Shown: positions 583 through 36,363, counted from the stretch's first letter. The stretch: 36,779 nucleotides of DNA from an uncultured virus (IMG/VR IMGVR_UViG_3300037010_004438) (IMGVR_UViG_3300037010_004438), one strand, 5' to 3'. The notes: generated by a model not told the origin, from the sequence alone. Numbers and translations: made by a program.

Positions 583-804
583 ATGCCCGCCCACGACGCC
601 CTCGCTCGCCTGCGCCTCCAGCCCGCCTCCGCCTTCTCTGCCACCGTCGCGACTGGCGCGGAGCCGGGCGCGGAGGTTACCTGGGCGAGCAACCCTCTCA
701 AGTTCATCACCACGCTCGGCGTCGGCATTGCCGTCGGTTACAGCATCGAGCACTTCGCCCACAAATGCGACGGCCCGAAGGAGTCCTCCTTCTCGCACGG
801 ATGA
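583..804 (+). CDS. Small membrane protein with HDxLxxLR...TVATG leader
   Basis: RBS AAGGA upstream; hydrophobic segment FITTLGVGIAVGY; N-terminus resembles that of CDS 5171. Confidence 0.75.
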   Translation: MPAHDALARLRLQPASAFSATVATGAEPGAEVTWASNPLKFITTLGVGIAVGYSIEHFAHKCDGPKESSFSHG

Positions 805-935
805 GCGCGCCTCAACGTTTCGGGCGCAGGAGCCCTTCACGCCGCAGAACCGTCCTCACCCGCGCGAACGCCGGATCGCCTCCCCACAGGTCCCGCGCGA
901 TCCTTCCCGCCGACGGAAACTTCGCGCTGCGATGA
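801..935 (+). CDS. Possible small Arg-rich protein (44 aa)
   Basis: ATGA overlap with the stop of 583..804; MSAPQRFGRRSPSRRR...; could be spurious. Confidence 0.3.
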   Translation: MSAPQRFGRRSPSRRRTVLTRANAGSPPHRSRAILPADGNFALR

Positions 936-1020
936 AACCCGGCGCTTTCCGATCAACTGCGCGCCTTCGAAAGTAGCTGTACATACGTATCCGCGCGTCA
1001 CATCCACGGAGCATCATCTC

Positions 1021-1776
1021 ATGCCCTTCCACGACAAGTACCTCCCTCTCGGCAAGAGGGTCGCGCGTCACGACCCTCGCACCCTGCAGCTCGTGAAGTA
1101 CCTCACGTCGCTGCCCAAACCGCCGGACACGCTCGCGTGGTCGATGAAGACCGACAAGAAGTGGCCGATGTTCAAGAACGACGTCGTCGGCGACTGTACG
1201 TGCGCGGCCGCCGCGCACATGATCGAGGTCTGGACCGCGGCCGGGCAACTGAAGGAGGTCGAGGTTCGCGACGAGGACGTCCTCGCCCTCTACACCCTCG
1301 TCACCGGATACAATCCGAAGCGCCCCGAGACCGATCAGGGGGCCGTCGTCCTCGACGTGCTCAACAAGTGGCGCAAGGTCGGCCTCGCGGGGCACAAGAT
1401 CGGGGCGTTCACCACGATCTCTCCGATGAGCAAGACGATCACCAAGGACGCGATCTACCTCTTCGGGGGCGTCTACACGGGCTTCGAACTCCCCGAGTCG
1501 GCGCAGGATCAAGCCGTGTGGGACGTCCCCGCGGGAGGCCTGCGAGGCCCGGGCGAACCGGGGAGCTGGGGCGGCCACGCCATCCCGATCGTCGACTATG
1601 ACGACCGCACGCTCACCTGCATCACCTGGGGCGCCGCGAAGAAGATGACGTGGGCCTTCTACCGCGCCTACTGCGACGAGGCGTACGCCATCATCTCGCA
1701 GGACTTCCTCTCCGGGAACAAGGCGCCGAACGGCTTCGACCTCGCGACGCTCCAGACGGATCTCGCGCTCGTGTGA
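1021..1776 (+). CDS. Papain-like (C1-type fold) cysteine peptidase
   Basis: GDCTCAAAAH (catalytic Cys context), WGGHAIPIVDYD (His), CITWG (equivalent of papain NSWG); RBS GGAG. Confidence 0.8.
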   Translation: MPFHDKYLPLGKRVARHDPRTLQLVKYLTSLPKPPDTLAWSMKTDKKWPMFKNDVVGDCTCAAAAHMIEVWTAAGQLKEVEVRDEDVLALYTLVTGYNPKRPETDQGAVVLDVLNKWRKVGLAGHKIGAFTTISPMSKTITKDAIYLFGGVYTGFELPESAQDQAVWDVPAGGLRGPGEPGSWGGHAIPIVDYDDRTLTCITWGAAKKMTWAFYRAYCDEAYAIISQDFLSGNKAPNGFDLATLQTDLALV

Positions 1777-1800
1777 ACCTCGCCCCGAGAAGAACATGAG

Positions 1801-1834
1801 CAAAGGGTCTCTGCCGAAAGGCAGAGGCCCTTTG
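1801..1834 (+). terminator. GAAA-tetraloop hairpin, probable intrinsic terminator
   Basis: CAAAGGGTCTCTGCC-GAAA-GGCAGAGGCCCTTTG, 25 nt after the peptidase stop. Confidence 0.7.
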
Positions 1835-1972
1835 TCCATTCGCGCAGCCATTCACCCTTCGACAGCCTCATCTCTCCTTGTTTCTCGTGCAGAAAGTCTC
1901 CATCATAGAGATGACTTCCTGGAAGTTCGCGGCCCCAAGAGCGGGGAAGGGCCGAGATGAGGAGACGCTCCC

Positions 1973-2443
1973 ATGAGCGCCTGGACGAACGCGAACGAGG
2001 GCGCGATGCCGGTCGTCGAGAGTGCAGCGGCAGAGTTGGTGAAGACGGGAGTGCTCGGCGCAGCGCTCATCCTCATCGGCGCGTACGCGTTCTGGGTCAC
2101 GCGCGAGTGGAACAAGACGCAGGGCGCCCGCGTGGAGGATCAGCAGAAGGTCACGACGACGCTCGTCGACTTCTCGAACAACATGAAGGACGTCATGCGC
2201 GACCTCAAGAACGCCATCGATGCCCTGAAGACGGCCACGGATGAGGAGCGCAAGGCCATCGCCATCCTGGACACAGCCGTCAAAGAGGTCGACCGTACCG
2301 TCGAGTCGCACACCAAGAGCATCGAAGCCGTCCGTACCACCGTCGACGGCATCAAGACCGTCGCGGAAGATGGAAGACGCGCGCACGAGACCATCCAACG
2401 CACCGTCGACGACGTTCAGCGCAGGCTGCCCGGTCCTCGGTAA
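1973..2443 (+). CDS. Holin-like membrane protein (single TM + coiled coil)
   Basis: RBS GAGGAG; LVKTGVLGAALILIGAYAFWV followed by a heptad-rich tail, an architecture seen in BhlA-type phage holins. Confidence 0.6.
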   Translation: MSAWTNANEGAMPVVESAAAELVKTGVLGAALILIGAYAFWVTREWNKTQGARVEDQQKVTTTLVDFSNNMKDVMRDLKNAIDALKTATDEERKAIAILDTAVKEVDRTVESHTKSIEAVRTTVDGIKTVAEDGRRAHETIQRTVDDVQRRLPGPR

Positions 2444-2952: not shown

Positions 2953-3105
2953 ATGCAAGAGAGCGCCAAGATCCTCCTCGGCTCCGTCGCCGTCATCGGC
3001 ATCGGATACCTACTGCCGCGCAAGGACGAGAAGGGACGGCCCATCAGCGCTCGACCGGCCGTTCTCGCCGGGTACGGGCACGGGCACGGGAGGTCGGCAT
3101 GGTAA
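2953..3105 (+). CDS. Small N-anchored membrane protein (50 aa; not in the supplied ORF track)
   Basis: Manual translation MQESAKILLGSVAVIGIGYLLPRK...AVLAGYGHGHGRSAW*; anchor resembles CDS 4063 and 4678; overlaps the start of 3099. Confidence 0.7.
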   Translation: MQESAKILLGSVAVIGIGYLLPRKDEKGRPISARPAVLAGYGHGHGRSAW

Positions 3106-3686
3106 GCGGACCTGTCACAGCTGCGGCGGGACTCTTCGAAACGGACAGCGACGTCCGCCTCTACGCGGGCCGTGTCGACGCCCAAATCACGGGCCTCGAC
3201 AACGACCTGCGCGCCTCCTTTCGGGCGAAGTACGGTCCGAGCGGGCTTGGCGGCACCGCCGTCGACAATGCGGCGCTCGCCGAGCAAAAAAGCGACAAAG
3301 CCTTCTACGACTCGTGGTCGCCGTTCCTTCTTGCCTGGCAACAAACGAAGAGGGACATCGACGAGAGCTTCTTCATCGTGCTGTCGGCGAACAAGTACCG
3401 AGAAGTGGAGAAGTACGACGTCGACTCGCAGGCGTGGAGGGCGAGGATTGCCAAGCGCGGCGTCCACTTGAACACGCCTCCCCTCACGCAAGGCGGGGCC
3501 ATCCCGGGCATCACGGCTCCGCAGAACCCGGACGTCCCGCAGCAAGAAAGCCTCGCCGGCGCCATCGTCGGCGACCTTGTCCGCGCCAGCTTGATCGCCG
3601 GTGCGGGCTACCTCGCGTTCCAGTTCATCTCGAAGAAAATCAAAGAAAGAGGGAGCGCCGCGCCCGCGTTGAAAAACTCCCTCTAA
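3099..3686 (+). CDS. C-anchored membrane protein, paralogue of 5171
   Basis: RBS GGGAGG; WRARIAKRGV and IAGAGYLAFQFISKK match 5171 WKAKLVDVGV and IAGIGYLSFLYVSKK. Confidence 0.85.
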   Translation: MVSGPVTAAAGLFETDSDVRLYAGRVDAQITGLDNDLRASFRAKYGPSGLGGTAVDNAALAEQKSDKAFYDSWSPFLLAWQQTKRDIDESFFIVLSANKYREVEKYDVDSQAWRARIAKRGVHLNTPPLTQGGAIPGITAPQNPDVPQQESLAGAIVGDLVRASLIAGAGYLAFQFISKKIKERGSAAPALKNSL

Positions 3687-4062: not shown

Positions 4063-4638
4063 ATGGACAAGAACGCGAAGATCGCTCTCGGTGTCGTGGC
4101 CGCCGGCGCCGTCGGCTACCTCCTCCTCAAGAAGGGCGACAAGGCGCCCGTCGTCGCACAGCCAGCTTCGCCCGGCGCGCCTTCGTCGCCTTCATCGCCC
4201 TCGGCGCCTTCGGCCGTCTACATGCCGACGGACACCGGCTACCAGGACTCGAACCCGAACGCCGTCATCGATCCGATCTCCCGGTCGTTCGCCGACGAGG
4301 CCGCGAAACGCCTCGACACCTATCTCGCGAACTACGCAGTCGCCTCCACGCAAAACGTCGCGCTCGACACCTTCGCCGTCGGCGCGATGAAGCTGCCTCC
4401 CGGGAAGGCCGTCAGCGATCCGAACAGCCTCGTCCCCGCCGCCGTCCGCCTGCTCGTGCAGAACGGCTACGACGTGCTCGTCGCCTACGACGTCGGACAG
4501 GCTGTCATGGCGGAGGATCCTTCGAAGGTGACGCAGAACATCGCCATGTTCGCGACCAAGAACCCCGCGATGGTGCAGACCCTCTTGCACCGAGGCGCCT
4601 ACGTCTACCGCACGGGCGCAAAGACGCTCACGACCTGA
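4063..4638 (+). CDS. N-anchored membrane protein with Pro/Ser linker (191 aa)
   Basis: MDKNAKIALGVVAAGAVGYLLLKK; likely start is ATG 4063 within ORF 3913..4638, whose upstream part is the repeat array. Confidence 0.85.
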   Translation: MDKNAKIALGVVAAGAVGYLLLKKGDKAPVVAQPASPGAPSSPSSPSAPSAVYMPTDTGYQDSNPNAVIDPISRSFADEAAKRLDTYLANYAVASTQNVALDTFAVGAMKLPPGKAVSDPNSLVPAAVRLLVQNGYDVLVAYDVGQAVMAEDPSKVTQNIAMFATKNPAMVQTLLHRGAYVYRTGAKTLTT

Positions 4639-4677: not shown

Positions 4678-5145
4678 ATGAAGTTCGCCACCAAGATCCT
4701 CATCGGCGTCGGCGGCCTCGCGGCCGTCTACCTCATCGCCTCGACCGCGGACTCCGCGCCCGCGATCCCGTACAACGACCCATCGAAGAAGCCGTCGAAG
4801 TTCGAGAAGCCGTGGACGGAGAGGCTCCGCATCATGCTCGCCAAGCGCATGACGAACCTCTCCGATGCGGACATCCGCGAATTTGCGGACGGACACGCCC
4901 CGTCCGCTTCCATGGGCGTCATGGCCTATCGGTTCGGCACCGAGGCTGCCCGGAAGAACTCCACCGCCGGCTCGCGCCTCATGGCCGAAGTGATCGGGCT
5001 GCTCGACGAGAGCAAGCTCTACATGCACGTTCCCGCCAAGTACAAGGACCCTTCGGTCGGGTTCGACGACGCCATCAAGGTGTACATCACCGGCGAACAA
5101 GGGAGCGCGCCCGACTCCGCCGGCGACTACATCATCCTCGCCTGA
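4678..5145 (+). CDS. N-anchored membrane protein
   Basis: RBS GGAG; MKFATKILIGVGGLAAVYLIA. Confidence 0.85.
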   Translation: MKFATKILIGVGGLAAVYLIASTADSAPAIPYNDPSKKPSKFEKPWTERLRIMLAKRMTNLSDADIREFADGHAPSASMGVMAYRFGTEAARKNSTAGSRLMAEVIGLLDESKLYMHVPAKYKDPSVGFDDAIKVYITGEQGSAPDSAGDYIILA

Positions 5146-6080: not shown

Positions 6081-6270
6081 GAAACTGAAAAGCCTTTCGC
6101 GACTCTCAATAAAGAAACAAGGCGCTCTGAGGAAGAGTTCCTGTTTCCTTGCCAAGAAAGTACCGTTCGCGGAAGCTCTCTTTCAGATCAACCGTAGCCG
6201 CTTCTCATTTTCGAGACAGAACGGTTGCGGGGCTCGAAGACTCGACGCCTTCGAGGCGAGGGGAGAGAGA

Positions 6271-8107: not shown

Positions 8108-9202
8108 ATGGCCATGACCGGCTCGCAGTTCCTCAAACAGATCAAAGACGTCCGCAACCCGGTCCTCTCGCAGCTCGCGCTCAAGCAGATGCTTGACGGG
8201 AACATGCCGGATTTCAACAGCGGCACGCGCATGATCGACTGCACGACAGAGGCGGTCATCGACGGACTGCACTACGTCTGCACCTACCGCGTCAAACCGC
8301 AGTACCTCTCGATCGGCGTCGACGACGACTTCATCCAGTGGCCGCTCACGTTCATCGATCTGCAGGCCTTCTGCGACGCGCACATCCTCACCTCCGAATC
8401 CGACGGGTCGAAGGTCCAGCAGTGGTTCATCCCCAGCAAGAAGATCGTCAAGAACACCTGGCTCTGGACGACGCGTAAGGGGTGCGCCATCGAGGCTATC
8501 CCGATGGGGCCCTCGGACGACATGACCTGGCCGGTGAAGATCGACCTGCAGCAGCAAAAGATCAACGCGGCGATGAAGGCGAAGGGATGTCCCATCACCG
8601 CGTTCAGCCGCGCGAAGAAGGCCTACATCACGGCGCCCAACATGGTCGGCACGGGCGGGCCGATGAACAACGGCTATCTGCACTTCACCGGCTGGTACAA
8701 GCTCGACGGCTTCGGCTGGCAGGACCAGGGGTACAAGCCCGTCGACGCGACCGGAGGACACGAAGCCTCCTATGCCGACTACAGTCACGGCTGCGACCTC
8801 GTCTACTACAACTGCGACGTGAACGGGACGCCGTACACCTACGACGAACTGTGCAACCACCCCGTGCTCTGGCCACTCGTGAGCGATCAGGGGCCGTTCA
8901 ATCCGCGTTTTCCGAACACCGGCTCCGGCGCCAAGGAGGTCATGAACAAAACCGACCGAATGCCGCGCGGAGAAGCGCCTCCCGCGTCCTACAAGGGTCC
9001 GACGTTCGCTACGACGGCCGGCGTCGTGAAGATGTCCGCCGGCGCCGATCCGACGACCGAGAAGGTCGTCGACGTCGCCCCCTACGCAGGAGACGTCGCC
9101 GAAGGCGGCTCGTCGAAGCTGCCGCTCATCCTCGGCGGGGCGGGTCTCGCCGCCCTCGGCTACTTCCTTTGGAAGAACCGCGAGCAGGGGCCGGCGTACT
9201 GA
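8108..9202 (+). CDS. C-anchored protein with YLxIG..DDF / YxDYSHG domain, paralogue 1 (364 aa)
   Basis: RBS GGAG, MAMTGSQFLKQ; motifs QYLSIGVDDDF, PSKKIV, HEASYADYSHG; C-terminal TM LILGGAGLAALGYFLWKNR. Confidence 0.9.
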   Translation: MAMTGSQFLKQIKDVRNPVLSQLALKQMLDGNMPDFNSGTRMIDCTTEAVIDGLHYVCTYRVKPQYLSIGVDDDFIQWPLTFIDLQAFCDAHILTSESDGSKVQQWFIPSKKIVKNTWLWTTRKGCAIEAIPMGPSDDMTWPVKIDLQQQKINAAMKAKGCPITAFSRAKKAYITAPNMVGTGGPMNNGYLHFTGWYKLDGFGWQDQGYKPVDATGGHEASYADYSHGCDLVYYNCDVNGTPYTYDELCNHPVLWPLVSDQGPFNPRFPNTGSGAKEVMNKTDRMPRGEAPPASYKGPTFATTAGVVKMSAGADPTTEKVVDVAPYAGDVAEGGSSKLPLILGGAGLAALGYFLWKNREQGPAY

Positions 9203-9302: not shown

Positions 9303-10469
9303 ATGGCCATGACTGGCTCCGAATTTCTCAAGCAGATGTGGGACGTCGTCGACCCGCATCGCGACGCGCTGGCGCTCAAGCAGATGCTCGACGGCAACAC
9401 GCCGAACTTCCTCAACAACATGAGGGCGTGCACGACCGAAGCGATCATCGACGGGAAATACTACCGCTGCACCTACCAGGTGATGCCGCAGTACCTCGCC
9501 ATCGGTTCTGACGCAGACTTCGTCCTCTGGCCGCTGACGCAGCCGTCGCTGCAAGCCTTCTGCAACGCGAAGATGCTCACCTTCAGCGACGGCTCCTCGG
9601 CGCAGCGCTTCTACATCCCGACGAGGAAGATCGTCAAGAACACCTGGAAGCAGAGCGACTGCAAGATCATTCCGCAGCCGATCTCCCGCGTCTCTTCGTC
9701 GAACCCGACGGGCCATCCCGGGACGAAGACGGAGACCATTGCGACCGAGCAAAAGATGATCAACGCGGCAATGATGGCCGCGGGCTGCAACCTCCGGGCG
9801 TTCAGTCGTCCGAAGAAGGCGTACATCGTCCGCCCGAACCTCGACGGGCGGCACATGGCTTTCGGCGGATGGTTTTATCCGGGCGGCAACGCGACCGCGT
9901 CCGGCAAGCCCTTCCTCCTCTCAGGCGACCCTCCCTACCGCACCGACGTGAACCTTGGCGGAGGGAGCTACGGGAGCCAGATCCAGCCATGGGACTCGGA
10001 CTTCCACGAGGACACTTACGAGGACTACAGTCACGGCTGCGACCTCGTCTACTACCAGTGCGACGTGAACGGGATGTCCTTCACGTTCGACGAGCTGTGC
10101 AACCACCCGAAGCTGCACGTCCTCGTGAGCGACGAAGGGGCCTTCAACCCTCGCTTCCCGAACGCCGGGCCGAACGCTCTCCCCGCCTTGAACAAGACCG
10201 GCCGGATGCCTCCGGCAGAGACGGTCGCGGAAGCGAAAACCAACGTCGCATCCTACGCGGCCAATGCAGCGAGCGGCGCGGTCGAGGCCCTGAACCAGGT
10301 CGAACAGGACAGCTACCCGACCGCCGAGGCCCCGCTCGGCATCGACGGCACCGCCCGCGCTGGCGCGGAGCCGAACGAAGGCGTCTTCAAGATGTTCCTC
10401 TTTGGTCTCGGCGCGAGCGCTGTCGGGGCATACCTCATTCATCGAGCGAAGAAGGAAGACGTGCGCTGA
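9303..10469 (+). CDS. C-anchored protein with YxDYSHG domain, paralogue 2 (388 aa)
   Basis: RBS AGGAG, MAMTGSEFLKQ; same motifs as 8108; C-terminal TM MFLFGLGASAVGAYLIHR. Confidence 0.9.
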   Translation: MAMTGSEFLKQMWDVVDPHRDALALKQMLDGNTPNFLNNMRACTTEAIIDGKYYRCTYQVMPQYLAIGSDADFVLWPLTQPSLQAFCNAKMLTFSDGSSAQRFYIPTRKIVKNTWKQSDCKIIPQPISRVSSSNPTGHPGTKTETIATEQKMINAAMMAAGCNLRAFSRPKKAYIVRPNLDGRHMAFGGWFYPGGNATASGKPFLLSGDPPYRTDVNLGGGSYGSQIQPWDSDFHEDTYEDYSHGCDLVYYQCDVNGMSFTFDELCNHPKLHVLVSDEGAFNPRFPNAGPNALPALNKTGRMPPAETVAEAKTNVASYAANAASGAVEALNQVEQDSYPTAEAPLGIDGTARAGAEPNEGVFKMFLFGLGASAVGAYLIHRAKKEDVR

Positions 10470-10887
10470 GGGGAAACGGCAAGACTTCCCGCCTACGTCC
10501 ACGCGCGCCGCCGAAAGCGGCACGAGAGCGAGACAGGAGGGGAGAGGGTCCGCCTTCGGCGGGCAGGGGAGGGAACGGGAGCGGGGTCGGGAAAGGGAAA
10601 GATCGCTCGCCCGCTCTGCGGGCTCACGGGCGAACGCGGACGGAGCGTGAAGACCTCGAAGAGCGCGAATCTTGTCAGACTAATTTTGGGGCAAAACATC
10701 GGGCAGCGCCAAATAAACCGCGATCTCGCGCAAAGAGACCCGCGAAGAACGAGAGAGGGCCTCGACTTCCAGGAAGCCGGGGCTTTACTCTTCTCGCTTG
10801 ACAGCCCTTCGTGCTGTAGACTCCCTCCATCCACAGGACGAAGCGGCCGTCACGGGCCCCGTCCGCCGAAGACGAAAGAGGACCTCC

Positions 10888-11250
10888 ATGGCCGCCAAGA
10901 AGCACCACGCCAAGAAACACCCCGCGAAGTCGGGCTCGAAGAGGACGGCAAAGAAGCACCGCAAGCCGAGCGCCTACAACGTCGCGATGGGCAAGCTGCG
11001 CCGTCAGCACCCGGGATGGACGATGAAGCAGTGCCACGCGTACCTCAAGGCGCACGGCTACGGCAAGAAGACCGCGAAGAAGCGCGCGGCGAAGAAGGGC
11101 GCGAAGAGCGCGAAGCACGCGCCGAAGAAGCACGCGAAGCGCGGGACGAAGAAGACGGCGAAGCACGGGACGAAGAAGACGGCGAAGCGCGGCGTGAAGA
11201 AGACCGCCTCGCACGCGAAGAAGCTCGTGCGCAAGTTCAAGAAGCACTGA
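10888..11250 (+). CDS. Lys/His-rich basic DNA-binding protein with HMG/YABBY-like core (120 aa)
   Basis: RBS GAGGA; AKK/TKKTAK repeats flank RKPSAYNVAMGKLRRQHPGWTMKQ. Confidence 0.85.
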   Translation: MAAKKHHAKKHPAKSGSKRTAKKHRKPSAYNVAMGKLRRQHPGWTMKQCHAYLKAHGYGKKTAKKRAAKKGAKSAKHAPKKHAKRGTKKTAKHGTKKTAKRGVKKTASHAKKLVRKFKKH

Positions 11251-11384
11251 CGTTCGCGCGCCGACTCGAAGGCTGCTCAGCCTCCTCGGCGCCCTGACCG
11301 ACCCCGCGGCGGAAAGTTCCGCGTCGCGGCAAGACCTCAAGGCGCCGAGCTTCGGCGCGAAGAAAACGACAAGGAGAAGCCTCC

Positions 11385-11996
11385 ATGGCACGTAGGACGA
11401 AGAAGTCGGCCAAGAAGCACAGCCGCAAGCTGTCGACCTGGCAGAAGTTCCAGAAGGCCCACGCGGGCAAGGGCATGAGCGTGAAGGAGATGTCGCGTCT
11501 CTTCCACTCGAAGGGCCTCGGCAAGAAGAAGGCCCCGAAGAAGGGCAAGAAGAAGGCGAAGCGCGCCCGCTCGGTCAACACGTCGAGCAAGCGCTACCGC
11601 GACTACGCGCGCAAGTTCCGCGAGAACGTCATCAACGAGCTGGTCGCCGAGGGCCTCTCGCTCGCGACGGCGAGGAAGCAGGCCTCCGAGATGCTCAAGG
11701 ACGCGGTCGGCGAGGACGCCGTGATCCAGGGCTACAAGGCGGAGTACCAGACCGAGCGGTCGAAGGACGCCGAGAAGCGCGCCGCCGAGCGCCAGAAGCA
11801 GCGCGACGCCGAGGACGCCAAGCGCGACGCCGCCGCCGCCAAGCGCGCTGCCGACCGCGCCAAGGCCGCAAAGAAGAAGGCCGAGGAGGACGCCGAGGAC
11901 GCGAAGAGGCGCGCCGAGGAGAACGAGGCCTTCCGCCGCGACATCCAGCGCAAGATGAAGGACCTTCAGGAAGCCGATTTGTCGTTCTCGCCCTGA
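11385..11996 (+). CDS. Basic DNA-binding protein with charged coiled-coil tail
   Basis: RBS AAGGAG; Lys-rich N-terminus, RKLSTWQKFQKAHAGKGMSVKEMSRLF, E/K/R/A-rich helix. Confidence 0.85.
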   Translation: MARRTKKSAKKHSRKLSTWQKFQKAHAGKGMSVKEMSRLFHSKGLGKKKAPKKGKKKAKRARSVNTSSKRYRDYARKFRENVINELVAEGLSLATARKQASEMLKDAVGEDAVIQGYKAEYQTERSKDAEKRAAERQKQRDAEDAKRDAAAAKRAADRAKAAKKKAEEDAEDAKRRAEENEAFRRDIQRKMKDLQEADLSFSP

Positions 11997-12037: not shown

Positions 12038-12220
12038 ATGGAAGGACCCGACCACCGTTCGCTCATCGCAGCGTCTGAAGTCGGGCTCTCCATGCCGAAG
12101 CCGCTCGGCGTCTTCTTCGCCATGTCTTCGACGCTGATTACGGTTGGCGCCTTCTTCTACAAACGGCAAGCTCAGAAAGAGGAAGAGAAAAAAGCTTATT
12201 CGAGCAAACAGTCTCGATAG
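12038..12220 (+). CDS. Small membrane protein
   Basis: RBS AGGAGG; hydrophobic segment ending GAFFYKR. Confidence 0.6.
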   Translation: MEGPDHRSLIAASEVGLSMPKPLGVFFAMSSTLITVGAFFYKRQAQKEEEKKAYSSKQSR

Positions 12221-12238: not shown

Positions 12239-12276
12239 ACGCCTTCCGACGCCAGTCGGGAGGCGTTATCGTTTTT
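12239..12276 (+). terminator. Hairpin with T-rich tail immediately before radA-like gene
   Basis: ACGCCTTCCGAC-GCCA-GTCGGGAGGCGT then TATCGTTTTT. Confidence 0.5.
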
Positions 12277-13420
12277 GAACATGCCGATTGCCGACACGAA
12301 AAGCGCCGTCCGAGCGCTCATCGAAAAGGTCAAAGCTCCTCTTCTCGAAAAGAAGGCGAAGACGTCTCTTCTCGAAACGGAGACTGCGAGGAACGCCCCT
12401 CCGAAGGAGCGCAAGGCGGGCATCGTCTACCAGTGCAAAGCCTGCGAGGAATTCACCAAGGTCCTCTCCCCTTCGTGCCGCTGCTGCCAGACGCCGAACG
12501 GCTACCAGCCAACCCCTCCAGGCACGCGAATGCCGAAGAAGAAACACGGCTACGTGAAGCAGGCGGGAGGGTTCGGATCGGCCTTCGGCGGCGACGACTT
12601 CGGCGGCGGAGGCGGCAAGAAGGGCGATGGGGACGAAGAGGATTTCGATCCTGACGACGCGCCCGAGGTCCTGACCATCGACGACGTCGAATCCGAGGAC
12701 CGCTATCGCATCTCGACCGGCATCGTCTCGCTCGATCGCGTGCTCGGCGGCAACGAGAAGGAAGGATACGGCATCGTCGCCGGCTCCTCGGTCCTCATCG
12801 ACGGAACGCCCGGCATCGGCAAATCGACGCTCCTCATCCAAGCGCTCGCGAAACTCGCCGAGGAGGGGACCGTCCTCTACGTCACGGGCGAAGAGTCCGC
12901 TTCTGACATCAAGGCGCGCGCCGAGCGCCTGAAGATCCTCAACCGCAAGAACAAGAAGCGCATCCTCGTCGTCGAGACGACCGACACCGACCACGTCATC
13001 AACATCATCGAGGAAGAGGAGCCGATCGCGGTCATCCTCGACTCGGTGCAGATGTTCGCCTCGGAGGAGGTTCCGGGTCAGGCCGGGAGCGAACCGCAGT
13101 GCAAGTACATCCTCGAAGAGATGATTCGAGGGACGTGTAAGCCGATGGGGATCGCGCTCTTCGTCGTCTCACAGGTCACCAAAGACGGAGACGCGCGAGG
13201 ACCGATGACCATCGCGCACATGGTCGACGCGCACCTCAAGTTCGAGAGCGCCGACCCGAAGAACCGCGGAGAGACCAAGCGCGTCCTGCACGCGAAAAAG
13301 AACCGCAACGGCGACATCGCCATCTTCCGCTACTTCCGCATGTCTTCGGAGGGGCTCAAGGGTCTCAAGCCGACGAGGGACATGGTCGCTCCGGGAGAGG
13401 CCGAAGACTCATTCTTCTGA
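12275..13420 (+). CDS. radA: RadA/Sms-like recombination ATPase lacking the C-terminal Lon-like domain
   Basis: Zn finger YQCKAC..CRCC, STGIVSLDRVLGG, Walker A GTPGIGKST, YVTGEES, DSVQ, HMVD, KNRNG (KNRFG-like). Start is TTG 12275 or ATG 12281. Confidence 0.85.
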   Translation: MNMPIADTKSAVRALIEKVKAPLLEKKAKTSLLETETARNAPPKERKAGIVYQCKACEEFTKVLSPSCRCCQTPNGYQPTPPGTRMPKKKHGYVKQAGGFGSAFGGDDFGGGGGKKGDGDEEDFDPDDAPEVLTIDDVESEDRYRISTGIVSLDRVLGGNEKEGYGIVAGSSVLIDGTPGIGKSTLLIQALAKLAEEGTVLYVTGEESASDIKARAERLKILNRKNKKRILVVETTDTDHVINIIEEEEPIAVILDSVQMFASEEVPGQAGSEPQCKYILEEMIRGTCKPMGIALFVVSQVTKDGDARGPMTIAHMVDAHLKFESADPKNRGETKRVLHAKKNRNGDIAIFRYFRMSSEGLKGLKPTRDMVAPGEAEDSFF

Positions 13421-22510: not shown

Positions 22511-22597
22511 AGCGGACGAAGCCGGCCCCCAAGCCCAAAGCATCCTCCTAACAAGCAGCGCGAAGCTGACGAAGACGAACAAGGATAGACACTCGCC

Positions 22598-28463: not shown

Positions 28464-31268
28464 ATGCTCGCGCGCCGTGCTCGCTACGTCCCCATCCATC
28501 CCTACGTCATCACTCCCACCGCAACGGCCGGATTTCTTGAGGGCCTCATCCATGCCGCGGAAGGGGCCGTGAGCGGCGCTATCCATGCCGTGGAAGGGGC
28601 CGCGAGCGACGTTGTCCACTGGACCGAGGGGGCTGCCGACGACTTCGGCAAAGCCGTCGGAGACGTTGGGCACTGGATCGGCGAAGGCGCCAAAGACATC
28701 GGCGGCTACATCGCCGACGGCGCCAAATGGGTCGGCAACGGCGTCGGCGACGCCGCCAAATGGGTCTACGAACACGACCCCATCATGCAGCTCGCGTCCA
28801 AGGTCGCGAGCGGCGAAAACGTCTGGCAGGCGCTCAAGGAAACGGGCGCCATCGTCACCGAGGACGTCAAAATCTTCGGGCCGTACGTCGCCTACATCCC
28901 AGGCATCGGGACTGCGGCTGCCATGGCCATCGCCGCCGGCGTCGCGCTCGCGAACGGAAAGCGCCTCGACGAAATCGCTCTCGATGCGGCGCGCGGCGCC
29001 CTTCCTCCCGGCCCTGCGCTCATCGCCTTCGACGCCGCCAATGCGCTCGTACGCGGCAAGGGCATCACCGACTCCGCGCTCGCGGGCCTCAAAGGGGTTC
29101 TTCCGGAGGAAATGGGGGGCGCCGTCGACGCAGCCATCTCCATCGTCAAGGGAGGCAACGTCACCGAGGCCGCGCTCCGCGCGGCGCGCGGCGCTCTCCC
29201 CGAAGAGGCGCAGGGCGTCTTCGATGCGGCCGTTTCCGTCGCCAAAGGAGGTAGCGTCACCGACGCCGCACTCTCCGCCGTCCGCGGCGTTCTGCCCGAG
29301 GAGGCGCTCGCTGCGTACGACACGGGCGTCGCTCTCGCGAAGGGCAAGCGCGTTCAAGACGCGATCTCCGATGGCCTCCGCGGTTATCTTCCTCCGGAGT
29401 ACCAAGAGGTCTTCGATGCCGCGCGCGACATCGCGAACGGCAAGAACGTCCTCGACGTCGCCATCAAAGAAGCAAAGGCCCACCTCCCGCCCGAGGCACA
29501 AGCAGCCGCCGACGCCGCCATTACGATCGCCAAGGGAGGCAAGGTGCAGGACACCCTGCTCTCCGCCGCCCGCATCGCCGTCCCTGGCGAGTATGTGCGC
29601 TACTTCGACATGGCGACGGGCCTTCTCCACATGGACAAGAGCAAGGCCGTCGCCGAGGTCATGGCGCAGATCCCTCCCGGGACCCCGGTCGCCGAAGCCT
29701 ACGAAATGGCGAAGAGGATCCAGAAAGAGGGCGTCGCAGGCGCCTCGCATGCAGCGGACGCCGCAAGCCTCTTCAAAGGCCTGGACAAGAGCTTTGCGAT
29801 GGGGTTCGTCGCAAACCTCAGAGCCTCCGTTCACGGAGGCGACCCCTCCACAGCCGCTACTGGCGCCCCCTCCACAGCCGCTACTGGCGCCCCCTCCACA
29901 GCCGCTACTGGCGTCCCCTCCACGGCCGCTACTGGCGCCAGCGCCTACGTGAACGTCGCTCTCGATCTCGCCATCGAAGAGCTTCGCAAGCAGCTTCCTA
30001 GCGATCCGATGGCCGTCGCCGCCTTCGACGCCGCCGTCGACATCGTGAGAGGAAAGAGCATCGAGGACATCGCCTCCGAAGTCGCAAAGCAATACGTGCC
30101 GAAGGAGTACAAGGACAAGGTCGAGACCGCTGTCAAGGCCGTCGACTCCGCCATTCACGGAGGCAACGTCGGCGACGTCGCCATCGAAGCTCTGAAGGGA
30201 CAGCTTCCTCCCGAGCTTAGCGGATACGTCGATCTCGGCGTCGGGATCGTGAAAGGCGAAAAGACGCAGGACGCCGCGATCGCTGCCGCCAAGGCCGCCC
30301 TTCCGAAGGAGCTTTCGAGCGCGTTCAACGCGGCCATGGGCATCGTGAGCGGCGACTACCGCGACGCTCTCAAGAGCGCCGTCGCAGGACAGATGCCGGA
30401 GGGTCTGCCCCTGCAGGACGCCTACTCGAAGGCCCTCGAACTCGGACAGGGTCTCTTCCCTGCCGACGTCATCGCGTCGGCGAGAGCTTCGCTCGGAAGC
30501 GATGCGCTCCGCGACGCATTCGACAAGATCGCACTCCTCGCCAAGGGCAAGGCCATCCAAGAGATCGCGACCGATCTCATCAAGGGGTACATCCCTCCGG
30601 AGGCCAAAGACGCCTACATGAAGGCCGCGACCATCGCCGATCACGCGAACCCGAGCGAGGTCGCGATGGGCGTCGTTCGTGCGCAGCTCCCGCCCTCCGC
30701 GCAGCATGCCGTCGACGGTGCTACTGCCATCTTCAAGGGCAAGGCTCCTGAAGAGATCGCCAACGACGAACTGGTCAAGGGCGCCATCGCTCGCACGCTC
30801 GCACTCAAGCGTGCGGCCGGCGAAATTCCTCCCGCCCCCGTCCACCTCATCGACGGCTCGAAGATCGCCCAAGGCGGACTTCGCGCCGCGGGCATTGCTG
30901 CCGCGGCCCAGTCCTCGAAAACGTCCTTCGCCAAGGTCGCCGGAATGATGGACGCGTCGAACGTCCTCGCCTTCAGCGACGGGGTCAAGAACTTCGTCAA
31001 GAACATGCAGGACGACGCTCGCATCTTCGAGCAAGCCATCGACGACATCGCGATTCGGCGCGCGTCGCTCGGCGCCTCCAACCCCTACACGGGCCCCGCG
31101 TTCGACCCGGCTTTCCAAAAACTCGTCGACCAAAAGACCGCGGAATACGCGCCGAAACCCTCACCCTCACCCTCGCCCTCCGCAACCCCACTCCTCGTCT
31201 TCGGAGGCGCCGCCGTCGCCGCCGCATCGGGCTATCTTCTCTGGAAGAAGCATCTCAAAAAAGCGTGA
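28464..31268 (+). CDS. 934-aa Ala-rich helical-repeat protein with amphipathic N-region and C-terminal TM anchor
   Basis: 11-mer amphipathic repeats, ~32-aa LPxE...DAA...KG repeats, PSTAATGA x4, C-terminal VFGGAAVAAASGYLLWKK. Confidence 0.9.
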   Translation: MLARRARYVPIHPYVITPTATAGFLEGLIHAAEGAVSGAIHAVEGAASDVVHWTEGAADDFGKAVGDVGHWIGEGAKDIGGYIADGAKWVGNGVGDAAKWVYEHDPIMQLASKVASGENVWQALKETGAIVTEDVKIFGPYVAYIPGIGTAAAMAIAAGVALANGKRLDEIALDAARGALPPGPALIAFDAANALVRGKGITDSALAGLKGVLPEEMGGAVDAAISIVKGGNVTEAALRAARGALPEEAQGVFDAAVSVAKGGSVTDAALSAVRGVLPEEALAAYDTGVALAKGKRVQDAISDGLRGYLPPEYQEVFDAARDIANGKNVLDVAIKEAKAHLPPEAQAAADAAITIAKGGKVQDTLLSAARIAVPGEYVRYFDMATGLLHMDKSKAVAEVMAQIPPGTPVAEAYEMAKRIQKEGVAGASHAADAASLFKGLDKSFAMGFVANLRASVHGGDPSTAATGAPSTAATGAPSTAATGVPSTAATGASAYVNVALDLAIEELRKQLPSDPMAVAAFDAAVDIVRGKSIEDIASEVAKQYVPKEYKDKVETAVKAVDSAIHGGNVGDVAIEALKGQLPPELSGYVDLGVGIVKGEKTQDAAIAAAKAALPKELSSAFNAAMGIVSGDYRDALKSAVAGQMPEGLPLQDAYSKALELGQGLFPADVIASARASLGSDALRDAFDKIALLAKGKAIQEIATDLIKGYIPPEAKDAYMKAATIADHANPSEVAMGVVRAQLPPSAQHAVDGATAIFKGKAPEEIANDELVKGAIARTLALKRAAGEIPPAPVHLIDGSKIAQGGLRAAGIAAAAQSSKTSFAKVAGMMDASNVLAFSDGVKNFVKNMQDDARIFEQAIDDIAIRRASLGASNPYTGPAFDPAFQKLVDQKTAEYAPKPSPSPSPSATPLLVFGGAAVAAASGYLLWKKHLKKA
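29844..29939 (+). repeat. 4 x 24-nt in-frame tandem repeat encoding PSTAATG[AV]
   Basis: CCCTCCACAGCCGCTACTGGCGCC at 29844, 29868, 29892, 29916 with 0-1 mismatch each. Confidence 0.95.
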
Positions 31269-33895: not shown

Positions 33896-33912
33896 CGCGA
33901 CGAGGATCCATC

Positions 33913-34758
33913 ATGGAAAAGAAGACTGCAATGATCCTGGGAGGCGCCGCGGTCGCGGGCCTCGGACTCTATCTCTGGCAGAAGAGCAAGACCGCCAGCG
34001 CCGCAACGCCGCAAAAGCCTGCGGGCGCGGACGTGCAGTCGCCGCGACTCGGAACTCCCACCGTCCCGGTTTCGCCAAATCCGACTGCGTCGGCTCCGAC
34101 GGATCCGATCGTGACCAAACCGGCAGCGTCGGCTCCGACGGATCCGGCCGTGACCAAGCCGGCGATCCCTTCGCCGACAGCGTCGGCTCCGACGGTTCCG
34201 GTCGTGACCGTGCCGACACCGACGCCGGCCGCAACCGTCCCGGCACCGGCCGGAGTCTCCTTCAACGAGATGACGCCCGACGGAAAGCTCCAGCTCTGGA
34301 CCGCCGTCACCAAGGGCACGCTGAAGACGGACACCTCGAACTCGAACTTCTACGTCTACGACGCCACGCCCGCGAAGACGCTCGACGAGTCCGGATCGAT
34401 GATCCTGATGCAGCGCAACGACGCCCAGGGAGGCGACGCCCTGTACATCCTCGCCTCCGTCTCCAACTCCGAGGCCCCGGTCTTCTGGGCCGCCGCCGAA
34501 AGCGACGCGGTCGCGATGGCGTCCGGGCCCAGCGCCGCGTGGACGGTCTTCCTTCGACCGAACGAGTGGCGAACGATGGCCGAGAACGCGTGGTCGGCAG
34601 GACAGACGTCTCCGTCGGGCTCGACGTCCTCCGTCCCTTCCACGGGCAGCCCCGCCCTCGACCAGTTCGGCCAAGGGTTGCAGGGTCAGCTCTCGCAGGC
34701 GGCTTCTCAGGCGGACCTGCCGAGCAACTCCTTCAACCTGGGCTCGTTCAAGCTCTGA
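33913..34758 (+). CDS. N-anchored protein, WxxFLRPxE family member 1
   Basis: RBS GAGGA; MEKKTAMILGGAAVAGLGLYLWQK; Pro/Thr linker with three ASAPT repeats; WTVFLRPNE. Confidence 0.85.
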   Translation: MEKKTAMILGGAAVAGLGLYLWQKSKTASAATPQKPAGADVQSPRLGTPTVPVSPNPTASAPTDPIVTKPAASAPTDPAVTKPAIPSPTASAPTVPVVTVPTPTPAATVPAPAGVSFNEMTPDGKLQLWTAVTKGTLKTDTSNSNFYVYDATPAKTLDESGSMILMQRNDAQGGDALYILASVSNSEAPVFWAAAESDAVAMASGPSAAWTVFLRPNEWRTMAENAWSAGQTSPSGSTSSVPSTGSPALDQFGQGLQGQLSQAASQADLPSNSFNLGSFKL

Positions 34759-34777
34759 ACGAAGAAAGCTCGCGCCC

Positions 34778-35371
34778 GTGAAACCCTCGACCGCCTTCTG
34801 GATCGGAAGTGCTGCGTTCGTGGGCCTTCTCCTTACGGTCCGAAGGAGTGCCGCCGCGACCGCGACGGCCTCCTCTCCCAGCGCGCTCCGACCCTCTTCA
34901 GGAAGCGAACGCTCCGACTCCGAGGTGAGCGCCGACGAGTTCGAAGAAATCCTTCCTGAAGAGAAGATGCGCGCCTGGATGTCGCTCTACTCCGTGAAGC
35001 TCGTTCCCGCGTCCTTTTCGCAAGCGTCTTTCTCGCAAGCGTCCGTGCGCGGCGCGCCCATGAGCGACAAAATCGACAAGCCCGTCACCGAAGCGCCGCT
35101 CGCCGTCGCGAAGCTCGACGAAGGCGCCAAGATCGAAGACACGGGCGCCTACCTCCTCGCGAAAAAGAACATGAACATGCGAGGGAAGCACTACATCCTC
35201 ACGCAGGCTTCGCCGAACGGCATCTTCTTCTGGCCGACGAACGTCGAAGACGCGGAGAAGTACGCGTCGCCAGGGGGCAACTGGAAGCTCTTTCTCCGCC
35301 CCGACGAGGCGTGGGATCTCATCCGAGCTGCCGGCCCTGCCTATACGATGAACGTCCCCGTCCTCGAATGA
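34778..35371 (+). CDS. N-anchored protein, WxxFLRPxE family member 2
   Basis: GTG start; N-terminal TM; WKLFLRPDE. Confidence 0.8.
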   Translation: MKPSTAFWIGSAAFVGLLLTVRRSAAATATASSPSALRPSSGSERSDSEVSADEFEEILPEEKMRAWMSLYSVKLVPASFSQASFSQASVRGAPMSDKIDKPVTEAPLAVAKLDEGAKIEDTGAYLLAKKNMNMRGKHYILTQASPNGIFFWPTNVEDAEKYASPGGNWKLFLRPDEAWDLIRAAGPAYTMNVPVLE

Positions 35372-35397
35372 AGGACCCTGACCCAAGGAACACGAAC

Positions 35398-36363
35398 ATG
35401 TCCTCGAAAGCGCCCGTCATTCTCGGAGGCCTCGCGATCGCAGGCGTCGCCGCCTACTTCCTGACGAGGAAGACGGCCGCCAAGACCGCGTCCGCTTCCG
35501 CGCCTCCCACGTCCACTTCCGCGCCTCCCGCGTCGAAACCTCAGACCGCGACCAAGTCCATTCCGAAGGTCGAAAACCCGACCGAATGGACCCCTCCCGT
35601 CGGCTACCCGAAACTTCCTTCTGGCTGGCAGCTTCCCACCTCCATCGTACCTCCTGCCGGCTGGATTCCGCCCATCAACTGGCAGGCCCCGGCCTGGATC
35701 GAGGCGCTCGGTTGGAAGGCTGGGCAGCCCATCCCCGGCATCGTTCTGCCTGCCCCCGCCGTCGCCCCCGGGACTCCGACCGTGCAAGCCATCGCGCCCG
35801 GCCCGCGCGGCGCGGTCCCCGTCCAGCGCGCCTACAAGCTCGGGTTCGACGACGGACAGCCGGCCGCATGGGGGCTTCCTGGCGTGCCGTTCTCTCTGCC
35901 CAACATCAGCTCCGTACTTCCGGGCGTCGTCGCCATGACGCCGACGGAAGCCGAAGAGCCTCGTGAAATGGGCGAGGACGACAAGTTCGCGCTGTGGAAG
36001 TCCCTCTTCCACAACGTCTCAAACGTCCTCGACTACTGCTACGACCCGGCCGGCGGGTGCATGCAGGCGCACGCGATGATCGGAGAGGCGCGCAAAGAAG
36101 ACGACAAGCGCGTCGTCATGGCCCAGGACATCGCCAACCTCAACGACTCGACCCCTCCCCGGGACAACTACGACAACCCGGGATGGATGGTGCTCTACTC
36201 CCCGTCGACCGAGGTCTTCTGGCTCCTCGAAGAAAAGCCCGCCCTCGAAGCGGTCAAGAAAGATGACTGGGTCATCTTCCTGCGCCCGAACGAGTACCAC
36301 AAGATGCAGGAACGAGGAGGTCCCGACTACACCGTGCCGGACGACCTGCCCGCCGCCTCCTGA
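35398..36363 (+). CDS. N-anchored protein, WxxFLRPxE family member 3
   Basis: RBS AAGGA; MSSKAPVILGGLAIAGVAAYFLTRK; Pro/Trp-rich linker; WVIFLRPNE. Confidence 0.85.
   Translation: MSSKAPVILGGLAIAGVAAYFLTRKTAAKTASASAPPTSTSAPPASKPQTATKSIPKVENPTEWTPPVGYPKLPSGWQLPTSIVPPAGWIPPINWQAPAWIEALGWKAGQPIPGIVLPAPAVAPGTPTVQAIAPGPRGAVPVQRAYKLGFDDGQPAAWGLPGVPFSLPNISSVLPGVVAMTPTEAEEPREMGEDDKFALWKSLFHNVSNVLDYCYDPAGGCMQAHAMIGEARKEDDKRVVMAQDIANLNDSTPPRDNYDNPGWMVLYSPSTEVFWLLEEKPALEAVKKDDWVIFLRPNEYHKMQERGGPDYTVPDDLPAAS

Follow-up and report, generated by a model that had tools for sequence, protein, structure and literature searches.

The DNA examined here, a stretch of 36,779 nucleotides (IMGVR_UViG_3300037010_004438; "the window" throughout), encodes many proteins that appear to be tied to a membrane in one and the same manner. 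This raises the question of whether its virus carries lipid in the particle or belongs to the tailed phages.

Origin of the window

About 46 proteins are encoded in the window, which is probably a block of late genes and comes from an uncultivated virus of bacteria with a genome of roughly 200 kb; the GC content of the window is 60–71% throughout. A 160,779-bp contig on record carries the window's own proteins. The IMG/VR genome G001 (202,518 bp) is a syntenic relative, distinct from the window's own genome; its CheckV completeness is 94%, and about 6% may be missing. Because 28 of the 46 window proteins have matches in G001 at 148–190 kb, in the same order, the window is viral DNA of a large GC-rich element and not host chromosome conserved in synteny, an origin that an earlier note on this DNA had named as fatal to its reading. 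The 286 ORFs called in G001 are co-directional and occupy 85% of the sequence (largest uncalled gap at most 1,075 bp), which ends without terminal repeats, inverted ones included. An unrelated tailed jumbo phage, G002 (60% GC, 202 genes), served as the tailed control.

The shared membrane anchor

The earlier note had pointed to about a dozen proteins with a common style of anchor. We recognized 14 among the roughly 46 window proteins. Each has a single helix rich in Gly and Ala, located N-terminally in some proteins and C-terminally in others; an aromatic residue, usually Tyr, precedes the first Lys or Arg by three to four positions. Helices were predicted by a crude hydropathy scan, not by DeepTMHMM, and their DNA positions (in brackets below) were derived from residue numbers of the ORFs.

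583..804, + strand: 73-aa protein, loose anchor (697–747)
1973..2443, + strand: 156-aa coiled-coil protein, N-terminal anchor (2048–2098)
2953..3105, + strand: 50-aa protein, N-terminal anchor (2965–3015)
3099..3686, + strand: 195-aa protein, C-terminal anchor (about 3552–3641)
4063..4638, + strand: 191-aa protein, N-terminal anchor (4078–4128)
4678..5145, + strand: 155-aa protein, N-terminal anchor (4696–4746), without Lys/Arg directly after the helix
5171..5860, + strand: 229-aa protein, anchor near the C-terminal end (5663–5713)
8108..9202, + strand: 364-aa protein with globular domain, disordered linker and C-terminal anchor (9119–9169)
9303..10469, + strand: 388-aa protein, C-terminal anchor (10392–10442)
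12038..12220, + strand: 60-aa protein, loose anchor (12104–12154)
28464..31268, + strand: 934-aa protein with 32-residue tandem repeats, C-terminal anchor (31191–31241)
33913..34758, + strand: 281-aa protein, N-terminal anchor (33925–33975)
34778..35371, + strand: 197-aa protein, loose N-terminal anchor (34790–34840), paralogue of 33913
35398..36363, + strand: 321-aa protein, N-terminal anchor (35416–35466), paralogue of 33913

The twelve starts given in the earlier note (583, 2953, 3099, 4063, 4678, 5171, 8108, 9303, 12038, 28464, 33913 and 35398) are all start codons of ORFs whose frame has the highest third-position GC, and a single hydrophobic segment was found in every one of these ORFs, at the end named there. 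The variants described as looser, 583 and 12038, are indeed loose, and so is 34778. The genes at 1973–2443 and 34778–35371 are two anchored ones beyond those twelve.

Several of these products depart in detail from the common design. The best-scoring 17-residue span of the 3099 product contains charged residues, that of the 5171 product (residues 165–181 of 229) is followed by 48 further residues, and the 934-aa repeat protein has an additional internal hydrophobic segment. Neither the latter nor the 583..804 product has a family match in Pfam or PHROGs. The 1973..2443 product shows weak matches to Rz-like spanins (phrog_739, E 3.2e-6; Pfam matches all under the curated cut-offs).

At a Kyte–Doolittle threshold of 1.6 over 19 residues, a single segment was detected in 12 of 46 window proteins and more than one in none. 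Just one protein passes at 1.9, so the helices are weakly hydrophobic. A strict pattern (core with at least 35% Gly/Ala, a small residue, an aromatic residue, then Lys/Arg a few residues on) occurs 6 times among the 39 automatically called genes of the window, as compared with a mean of 0.43 and a maximum of 3 in 200 residue shuffles, which preserve amino-acid composition. It occurs in 26 of 286 G001 genes (shuffles: mean 1.67, maximum 5) and in 2 of 202 genes of the tailed control. When the helices are aligned on the first Lys/Arg, position -4 is aromatic in 54% (window), 44% (G001) and 17% (G002) of cases, and is Tyr in 29–38% in the window and G001 versus 11% in G002. The Gly/Ala share over positions -13 to -5 is 42–53% in G001 and 17–39% in G002.

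With the anchors masked, BLASTP grouped only {8108, 9303} and {33913, 34778, 35398}; the 14 anchored proteins therefore represent at least 11 unrelated families, and the common anchor style is more than paralogy. The anchors are real and non-random, occur across the lineage, are spread over unrelated families and exceed the level in controls. The share of single-pass proteins is 26% in the window and 18% in G001 versus 10% in the tailed control, and it is near the values for membrane-containing viruses: 33% (Bam35); 29% (an autolykivirus); and 20% (MetSV). On this point the reading of the earlier note finds support.

Lys/Arg is denser after than before the helix in 11 of the 14 window anchors, which, under the positive-inside rule, would place the domains of the N-anchored proteins in the cytoplasm. 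The one anchor may act as a common sorting signal for a viral membrane.

The family of the 8108..9202 product illustrates the association of the anchor with viruses. This protein starts without a signal peptide, and its model (pLDDT 82.9) has only a weak likeness to C-type lectins and FGE (its best Z, 6.5, does not reach the noise bar of 8). The 9303..10469 product is its paralogue (50% identity across 319 columns). A C-terminal anchor and a direct start of the domain are present in 21 of 21 viral-type members of the family, whereas the anchor is absent from all eight bacterial-type homologues aligned, of which seven have an N-terminal hydrophobic leader and one a long N-terminal extension.

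Anchored proteins of G001 include a PG_binding_1 protein, an endolysin-like peptidase, two GDSL lipases, a transglycosylase-like protein, a B-lectin and a thioredoxin-like domain. Signal peptides are lacking from the wall hydrolases, lipases and lectin-like domains that bear the anchor, which speaks for lipid in the particle.

Other genes of the window

The following further features were identified.

1021..1776, + strand: 251-aa protein without anchor (phrog_19005, E 1.2e-38)
10798..11996, + strand: two Lys/Arg/Ala-rich basic proteins, histone-H1-like by composition (10798–11250; 11385–11996)
12275..13420, + strand: RadA/Sms-like RecA-fold ATPase (RadA 5lkm, E 4.8e-36, residues 137–366)
14354..15427, + strand: fibre protein with collagen repeats (E 1.5e-14) and a LamG/ConA-like domain (Laminin_G_3, E 2.4e-8)
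22052..24073, + strand: two-gene cassette, 152 aa and 491 aa
24100..25281, + strand: 276-aa conserved protein and 101-aa protein with three hydrophobic segments

The 1021..1776 product shares 66% identity with its G001 counterpart, and in one record of an uncultured phage its tblastn match falls under a gene labelled "cysteine protease...". Basic proteins similar to the H1-like pair (26–38% Lys+Arg) are present in G001; such proteins are unusual in motor-packaged tailed phages. The sole clear P-loop ATPase of the window, encoded at 12275..13420, also matches KaiC-type ATPases (51.4 bits; cut-off 26.6). Because the RadA match ends at residue 276 of 452, the protein probably lacks a Lon-like domain. 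It is RadA-like, not an A32/FtsK-type packaging ATPase.

The model of the 491-aa protein consists of two beta-sandwiches, the first ConA/GH16-like (Z 18.7, rmsd 2.7, 181 aligned). Its best PDB match by Foldseek is the receptor-binding domain of TM4 gp23, and its BFVD matches are tailed-virus proteins, including minor tail proteins of actinophages. This family ends tail-fibre modules of tailed (pro)phages: of 14 MAG loci inspected, 11 have tail genes ahead of it, and the 152-aa partner was found (E ≤ 1e-6) in 6 of 51 MAG loci. Of 10 IMG/VR loci inspected for the 276-aa family, at least 7 have terminase, portal, head, sheath or tape-measure genes less than 10 kb away, and the 276-aa/101-aa pair is likewise adjacent in G002. 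The placement of the 491-aa and 276-aa families in structural modules of tailed phages counts against lipid in the particle. The N-terminal ~90 residues encoded at 25869–27407 recur at eight more sites in G001, a pattern also shown by branched tail-fibre sets.

Search for tailed-phage and membrane-virus genes

None of the 46 window proteins matched a large terminase (Pfam, PHROGs). Tail tube, sheath, tape-measure and baseplate proteins were also unmatched in the window, where matches were of fibre type only (collagen, 491-aa cassette). Terminase, portal, major head, protease, connector, sheath, tube, tape-measure and baseplate families were all unmatched in G001, of which 233 of 286 ORFs were scanned with PHROGs and 108 with Pfam. 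Six-frame searches of G001 with PF03237 and phrog_2 yielded nothing, the G001 searches gave no P-loop protein resembling a terminase, and 85 unannotated ORFs (82 of at least 180 aa and three at tile boundaries) rescanned at E ≤ 0.05 matched no head, packaging, connector or tail-shaft family. The same methods readily recovered terminase, head and tail genes in control phage loci. Tailed-phage morphogenesis genes thus went undetected in G001; the terminase result applies to a relative that is 94% complete and to HMMs that may miss extreme divergence. HK97 capsid and portal profiles, which may miss a diverged HK97 fold, had no match in the window or G001. The earlier note had held that HK97 capsid, terminase and portal genes would contradict a membrane-containing virus; profile searches of this near-complete relative revealed none of them.

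The hallmarks proposed there for such a virus did not come to light either. Neither Pfam nor PHROGs gave a match to a jelly-roll capsid protein (double or vertical single) in the window or G001, and the two of about 46 window proteins that were folded are both lectin-type. An A32/FtsK-HerA ATPase was not found in the window or G001, although small diverged ATPases could be missed. A six-frame search of G001 with PF04665 was empty, and the ATPases of three membrane-containing viruses (Bam35, an autolykivirus, MetSV) had no phmmer match there at E ≤ 10. The absence of both hallmarks from these searches, with a window ATPase that is RadA-like and two folded proteins that are lectin-type, also speaks against lipid.

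The polymerase was the sole G001 match to the proteins of these three viruses in phmmer. It is the only DNA polymerase detected in G001 and belongs to the protein-primed family B (PF03175, E 2.1e-26, 93.3 bits; cut-off 25.8). The 20 tblastn records matched by it comprise Bacillus tectiviruses (12), Vibrio autolykiviruses (4) and MetSV (4), with no phi29-like phage. Its gene lies outside the G001 stretch matching the window; the protein-primed type is thus known from the relative only.

Nature of the virus

The virus probably infects a Gram-negative, GC-rich bacterium and probably has a linear, protein-primed dsDNA genome of about 200 kb. With many anchors of the same style and no tail, head or packaging gene detected in G001, a lipid-containing phage of very large size is one possibility, in favour of which also speak the high share of single-pass proteins, the protein-primed polymerase of G001, the H1-like basic proteins and the anchors of the 8108 family. 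We consider lipid in the virion quite possible, if short of probable. The large membrane-containing virus of a GC-rich bacterium postulated in the earlier note is partly supported: as a large GC-rich viral element, but not in its capsid and ATPase hallmarks.

A scheme can be proposed in which about one-third of the window proteins, from at least 11 families, would be tethered by one weakly hydrophobic helix (Gly/Ala-rich, with an interfacial Tyr followed by Lys/Arg, at either protein end and without a signal peptide). They would share a signal-peptide-free route of insertion into the host inner membrane, with globular domains staying at the cytoplasmic face, and would build a virus-specific membrane patch. 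The particle could take up this patch as an internal membrane or an envelope, so that wall hydrolases, lipases and lectin-like binders would end up on its membrane for entry. The topology, the patch and the virion lipid are what we infer. The complete picture, a tailless, lipid-containing, protein-primed bacterial virus of about 200 kb with DNA condensed by H1-like proteins, is put forward tentatively. If true, this virus would exceed every known prokaryotic virus of the PRD1/PM2 type about tenfold in size. It would stock its membrane by one anchor with some 40–50 proteins, entry enzymes and lectin-like binders among them, and would in effect be to bacteria what the giant membrane-containing viruses are to eukaryotes. 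The prokaryotic double-jelly-roll viruses recovered in a metagenomic survey measured "roughly, between 7 and 18 kb" (PMC5894146). A 200-kb member would have no precedent, which counts against this picture.

A highly divergent tailed jumbo phage, with head, packaging and tail proteins beyond the reach of profile HMMs or in the unassembled part, is only slightly less likely. Its anchored proteins would remain in the host inner membrane, outside any viral membrane, and serve lysis (endolysin, lipase and spanin-like proteins, with weakly hydrophobic, release-prone helices like those of SAR endolysins), superinfection exclusion or assembly. Every known bacterial virus of comparable size has a tail. 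Tailed phages typically carry collagen-like and multi-copy fibre proteins, and these count against lipid; the collagen/LamG protein and the repeated 25869–27407 N-terminus agree with a tailed phage, as do the module contexts of the 491-aa cassette and 276-aa family, the structural matches of the 491-aa model and the Rz-like spanin matches. The Gly/Ala-rich helices also resemble SAR domains, but the basic cluster after the helix opposes the N-in topology of SAR endolysins. A tailed phage is further at odds with the lack of head, packaging, connector and tail-shaft matches in 233 G001 ORFs where controls were easily detected, the lack of a terminase-like P-loop protein, the tectivirus-like protein-primed polymerase and the mere two anchors in the control.

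It is unlikely that the element is a lipid-free virus with an undescribed particle, or a linear, plasmid-like replicon with lysis and fibre genes of phage origin that the IMG/VR pipeline scored as viral. Protein-primed polymerases occur on linear plasmids too, capsid genes of any known type were undetected and most genes are without known relatives; however, conjugation, partition and integrase genes were not seen in G001 (PHROGs, Pfam) except for weak ParB-like (E 0.003–0.026) and ParA-like (E 2.6e-4) matches, and dense, co-directional coding is combined with a phage-like make-up of endolysins, spanin-like proteins, fibres and nucleotide-metabolism genes. That the anchor is an ordinary GC-rich product with nothing specific to it (Gly/Ala helices, aromatic belt, positive-inside rule) is very improbable: GC-rich coding favours Gly and Ala, and membrane proteins in general have Tyr and Lys/Arg at the ends of their helices, but the 60%-GC control, the composition-keeping shuffles, the Tyr frequency at -4 and the 8108 family all contradict it.

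Comparison with known systems

The lineage is unusual whether it is lipid-containing or tailed. Jumbo Caudoviricetes share with it genome size, nucleotide-metabolism and sigma-factor genes, endolysins, a spanin-like protein and collagen-like fibres, as well as receptor-binding cassettes common to tailed phages. G001 differs from them in the protein-primed polymerase and in that terminase, portal, HK97-type head and tail-shaft proteins were undetected; uniform anchors are about 13 times more numerous per genome than in G002.

Tectiviridae (PRD1, Bam35) and Autolykiviridae are tailless phages with an internal membrane. The family-B polymerase of G001 has matches in the phage collection only to these and to MetSV, and the high share of small single-pass proteins is another common trait. 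Membrane-anchored wall hydrolases also have counterparts in PRD1 P7 and the Bam35 hydrolase. The genome, however, is about 13–20 times larger (202 kb versus 10.6–14.9 kb), many fibre-like proteins and a RadA-like ATPase are present, and a double-jelly-roll capsid protein, penton and small packaging ATPase were undetected.

SAR endolysins and Pf3-type coat proteins possess Sec-independent, Gly/Ala-rich single helices, and the helix described here resembles them in being weakly hydrophobic and rich in Gly and Ala. In the Pf3 coat, a short N tail lies outside and the helix is followed by basic residues, an arrangement also predicted here; in SAR domains, the basic cluster does not follow the helix as it does here. 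Unlike in both systems, the helix is found at one end or the other of dozens of unrelated proteins, some of them 364–934 aa long. Cystoviridae (phi6) are small viruses with segmented dsRNA, and the likeness to them, with no homology seen, may be one of envelope logic: an intracellular envelope of their style would expose cytoplasm-facing domains to the outside and would fit anchored lectin-like and lytic domains made without signal peptides.

Origin and gene content of the window

The window, 36,779 bp long, has a GC content of 60-71% and carries about 46 ORFs, chosen by third-position GC, all except one or two of which lie on the + strand. Neither a tRNA gene nor an Rfam match was found in it. 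Pfam matches above the curated cut-off were obtained for three of the 46 proteins:

Window proteins with Pfam matches above the curated cut-off
12275-13420, KaiC/RecA-type ATPase
14354-15427, collagen plus LamG protein
28122-28424, CGNR zinc finger

PHROGs profiles (E <= 0.01) matched six of the 46 proteins, none of these six being a head, packaging or tail-shaft protein. Megablast of the region 12000-28000 against the phage collection gave no match.

The 491-aa protein (22598-24073) and the ATPase each pointed to the same IMG/VR contig, G001, which is 202,518 bp long, has a GC content of 65%, is classed as 'linear' and has a CheckV completeness estimate of 94%. Matches to G001, with 23-72% identity, were found for 28 of the 46 window proteins, and gene order was kept over 148-190 kb of this contig. 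The window's own proteins are also on record from a contig of 160,779 bp. Both observations identify the window as part of a large virus-like element rather than of a host chromosome conserved in synteny, the alternative named in the earlier note. The lineage is a rare one, represented in IMG/VR by G001 and two short close relatives; scans of this database with the G001 polymerase and with a 934-aa window protein (28464-31268) returned G001 as the sole match. No description of such a lineage was found in the titles and abstract openings searched, which is weak evidence of absence. G002, a 202-kb tailed jumbo phage, was rejected as a relative, the proteins in common being 7 of 286.

The genes identified in G001 include those related to nucleotides and RNA (dNMP kinase, RtcB, nucleotidyltransferase, and thymidylate-synthase-like genes), those for DNA handling (HNH nucleases, methyltransferase, helicase, SSB, and 5'-3' exonuclease), sigma factors, and several endolysin-type proteins. 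At 92572-93519, 146462-147616, and 153977-154597, G001 encodes a PLD-like protein (PLDc_2, E 6.8e-41) and two GDSL lipases of the GDSL/SGNH hydrolase type; both hydrolases bear the membrane anchor described below. All three are possible lipid- or wall-modifying enzymes. The sole DNA polymerase identified in G001 is of the protein-primed type (PF03175). All 20 phage records matching it come from Bacillus tectiviruses (12), Vibrio autolykiviruses (4), and MetSV (4). Reference polymerases match this gene (L015; 38680-40778) in two frames that overlap, one at 38680-40524 and the other at 40041-40778; a frameshift, a misassembly or a gene split in two could account for this.

Several window genes have counterparts in G001. 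An acidic, coiled-coil-looking protein, with a composition reminiscent of scaffolding proteins, is encoded at ~6650-7574 (in the frame of ORF 6225-7574) and is duplicated in G001 (162794-164251; 54% and 32% identity). Lys/Arg/Ala-rich proteins with short basic repeats and H1-like composition occur at 10798-11250 and 11385-11996, and in G001 at 164600-165220, 165554-166546, and 126658-127758 (Lys+Arg 26-38%); these may act in DNA condensation or in silencing of the host nucleoid. The anchored 934-aa protein contains 32-residue tandem repeats, with a run of seven beginning at residue 180 and at least four more beginning at residue 545, and shares 42% identity across its length with an 860-aa G001 protein. 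It is possibly a membrane-tied ruler or scaffold; an Atlas search with it gave no usable match.

Membrane anchors

About a dozen window proteins had been claimed to share one style of membrane anchor: a Gly/Ala-rich helix that ends in [GAVL]-Y-[LF] and is followed by Lys/Arg. Helices were predicted by a Kyte-Doolittle hydropathy scan, which found one hydrophobic segment at the named end of each of these proteins and added two more, those starting at 1973 and 34778. At a threshold of 1.6, 12 of the 46 window proteins pass, and at 1.9 one does, which characterizes the helices as weakly hydrophobic. In the window anchors aligned on the first Lys/Arg, Gly and Ala make up 31-69% of the core and an aromatic residue occupies position -4 in 54%. 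The strict form of the pattern matched six times in the window, versus 0.43 times on average and never more than 3 times in 200 shuffles, and in 26 of 286 G001 genes (shuffle mean 1.67, maximum 5), versus 2 of 202 genes in the control genome, a tailed jumbo phage of 60% GC. Once the anchors were masked, the only paralogues remaining were {8108, 9303} and {33913, 34778, 35398}; the style thus spans at least 11 unrelated families, and the claim of a shared anchor stands.

In G001, the anchor is attached to PG_binding_1, endolysin-like peptidase, GDSL lipase, transglycosylase-like, B-lectin, and thioredoxin-like domains. Modelling of 8108-9202, an anchored protein of 364 aa, was confident (pLDDT 82.9) but gave weak fold matches, the best of which (Z 6.5, rmsd 4.9, 159 aligned) lies below the noise bar. 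They are mostly of the C-type-lectin/FGE type, including variable proteins of diversity-generating retroelements, and since they fall below this bar the assignment of 8108-9202 to that type is a lead from the model. In all 21 viral-type members of the family, the domain begins at the very start of the protein and the anchor is at the end. Among eight aligned bacterial-type homologues none has the anchor, seven have an N-terminal hydrophobic leader, and one has a long N-terminal extension. In the viral-type members, then, a bacterially exported domain has been re-tethered without a signal peptide. Bacterial-type homologues occur in at least 582 stretches of JGI metagenomes, on contigs of up to 1.2 Mb; the metagenome scan with this family did not extend the ends of G001 because it was swamped by them (identity <=31%). 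The anchored domain, which has an invariant D-Y-S-H-G motif, is part of a large family (metagenome loci L118-L197) of bacterial proteins of unknown function, most of them with the hydrophobic leader at the N terminus. Neither a Pfam family nor a close solved fold was found for it.

Search for capsid and morphogenesis genes

PHROGs profiles covered 233 of the 286 called ORFs of G001 and Pfam covered 108. The 53 ORFs outside the PHROGs scan comprise 49 of less than 85 aa, two small ones at tile borders, and two examined with Pfam only. Within this coverage, we detected no match to a terminase, portal, major head protein, protease or connector, and none to a sheath, tube, tape measure or baseplate protein. 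Six-frame searches of G001 for PF03237, phrog_2, and PF04665 gave no match, and the largest uncalled gap is at most 1,075 bp. In control loci, the same pipeline picked up tailed-phage morphogenesis genes at once. HK97 capsid, terminase and portal genes, the presence of which was to count against a membrane virus, therefore have no profile match in a relative that is ~94% complete.

The 491-aa protein was taken as a capsid candidate because its relatives fall into 143 or more clusters, uniform in length. Its model (pLDDT 75.5, pTM 0.77) consists of two beta-sandwiches, the first resembling GH16 glucanases and legume-type lectins (Z 18.7, rmsd 2.7, 181 aligned). The top Foldseek match in PDB was the receptor-binding domain of mycobacteriophage TM4 gp23 (E 2.4e-8), the BFVD matches were tailed-virus proteins, and a profile match linked the protein to microvirus spike protein G (E 4.9e-5); tblastn against the phage collection gave no match. 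With a ConA/GH16-like fold and no capsid protein among the matches listed, it was rejected as a capsid protein and is part of a receptor-binding cassette. The gene was found at 51 MAG loci (L054-L104). Fifty of these matched the window, with at most the cassette in common apart from one locus where the shared N-terminal domain of the fibres was matched too; the remaining locus gave no match. The gene for the 152-aa partner, upstream of the 491-aa gene, was detected in six of the 51. In 11 of 14 annotated loci, the 491-aa gene lies downstream of tail genes (tape measure, phrog_778, phrog_4271, tail fibre). This lectin gene is widespread: (pro)phages that carry it were found in bins of Alphaproteobacteria, Myxococcales, Gemmatimonadota and others, and it usually closes a GTA-like tail module. 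The cassette (22052-24073) looks like a mobile receptor-binding module.

The first ~90 residues of the 512-aa protein 25869-27407 are repeated at eight further G001 sites, in the regions 84268-86202 and 129554-133535, before differing C-terminal parts, like a common attachment domain for a set of fibres or spikes.

Neither of two other capsid candidates was retained. Distant homologues (22-36% identity) of the 276-aa protein 24100-24930 lie in structural modules of clear tailed phages at no fewer than seven of ten loci, and they adjoin annotated head proteins, which rules this protein out as the capsid; its profile had no match in PDB, and confidence in the Atlas model was low. Together with a small protein with three hydrophobic segments, which could be a holin-like partner (pair at 24100-25281), it also occurs in the otherwise unrelated G002 (74302-75413), where the two proteins are 46% and 52% identical to those of G001. 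The 246-aa protein 13604-14344, which adjoins the ATPase and has 27-29% identity to G001, was set aside with 13 relatives among 1.8 billion representatives.

The ATPase itself is RadA-like (5lkm, E 4.8e-36) and not A32/FtsK-like. This RadA/Sms-like protein has an N-terminal Cys-containing stretch, is located amid late genes, and shares 53% identity with its G001 counterpart. The match ends well short of the C-terminal part of RadA, so the Lon-like domain is probably absent.

Nature of the virus particle

Of the 14 window anchors, 11 have more Lys and Arg after the helix than before it. By the positive-inside rule, the bulk of the N-anchored proteins would be left in the cytoplasm. In PRD1, as outlined in PMC6356626, the host membrane receives viral membrane proteins and the patch is then pinched off. 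If a viral membrane budded inward, envelope-acting domains on the cytoplasmic face would come to lie on its outer face, which would explain why they are kept there.

We tentatively favour a lipid-containing particle, as the earlier note had proposed, though at less than even odds. In its favour are how many and how uniform the anchors are, the tectivirus-like polymerase of G001, and the fact that not one tailed-phage morphogenesis gene is detectable in this near-complete relative. The two hallmark proteins expected with it did not appear: no A32/FtsK ATPase was found in the window or by the PF04665 search of G001, and no jelly-roll capsid protein was found with 2 of ~46 window proteins folded, both lectin-type. 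The prior also counts against it, since the prokaryotic double-jelly-roll viruses of the survey reported in PMC5894146 are 'roughly' 7-18 kb. A highly diverged tailed jumbo phage, to which the fibre and receptor-binding genes point, is only slightly less probable. Another kind of element is unlikely, and the shuffles and the control genome make it very improbable that the anchor style is a composition effect.

Whichever holds, a lineage now almost wholly 'hypothetical' would be better annotated. If tailed, the virus would be a jumbo phage with a protein-primed, tectivirus-like polymerase, with ~15% of its proteins membrane-tethered in a single style and with every morphogenesis gene beyond the reach of current profile libraries. 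If the particle contains lipid and lacks a tail, the uniform anchor would be a readable targeting code for the viral membrane, and bacterial viruses with a membrane would span a range of sizes about tenfold wider.
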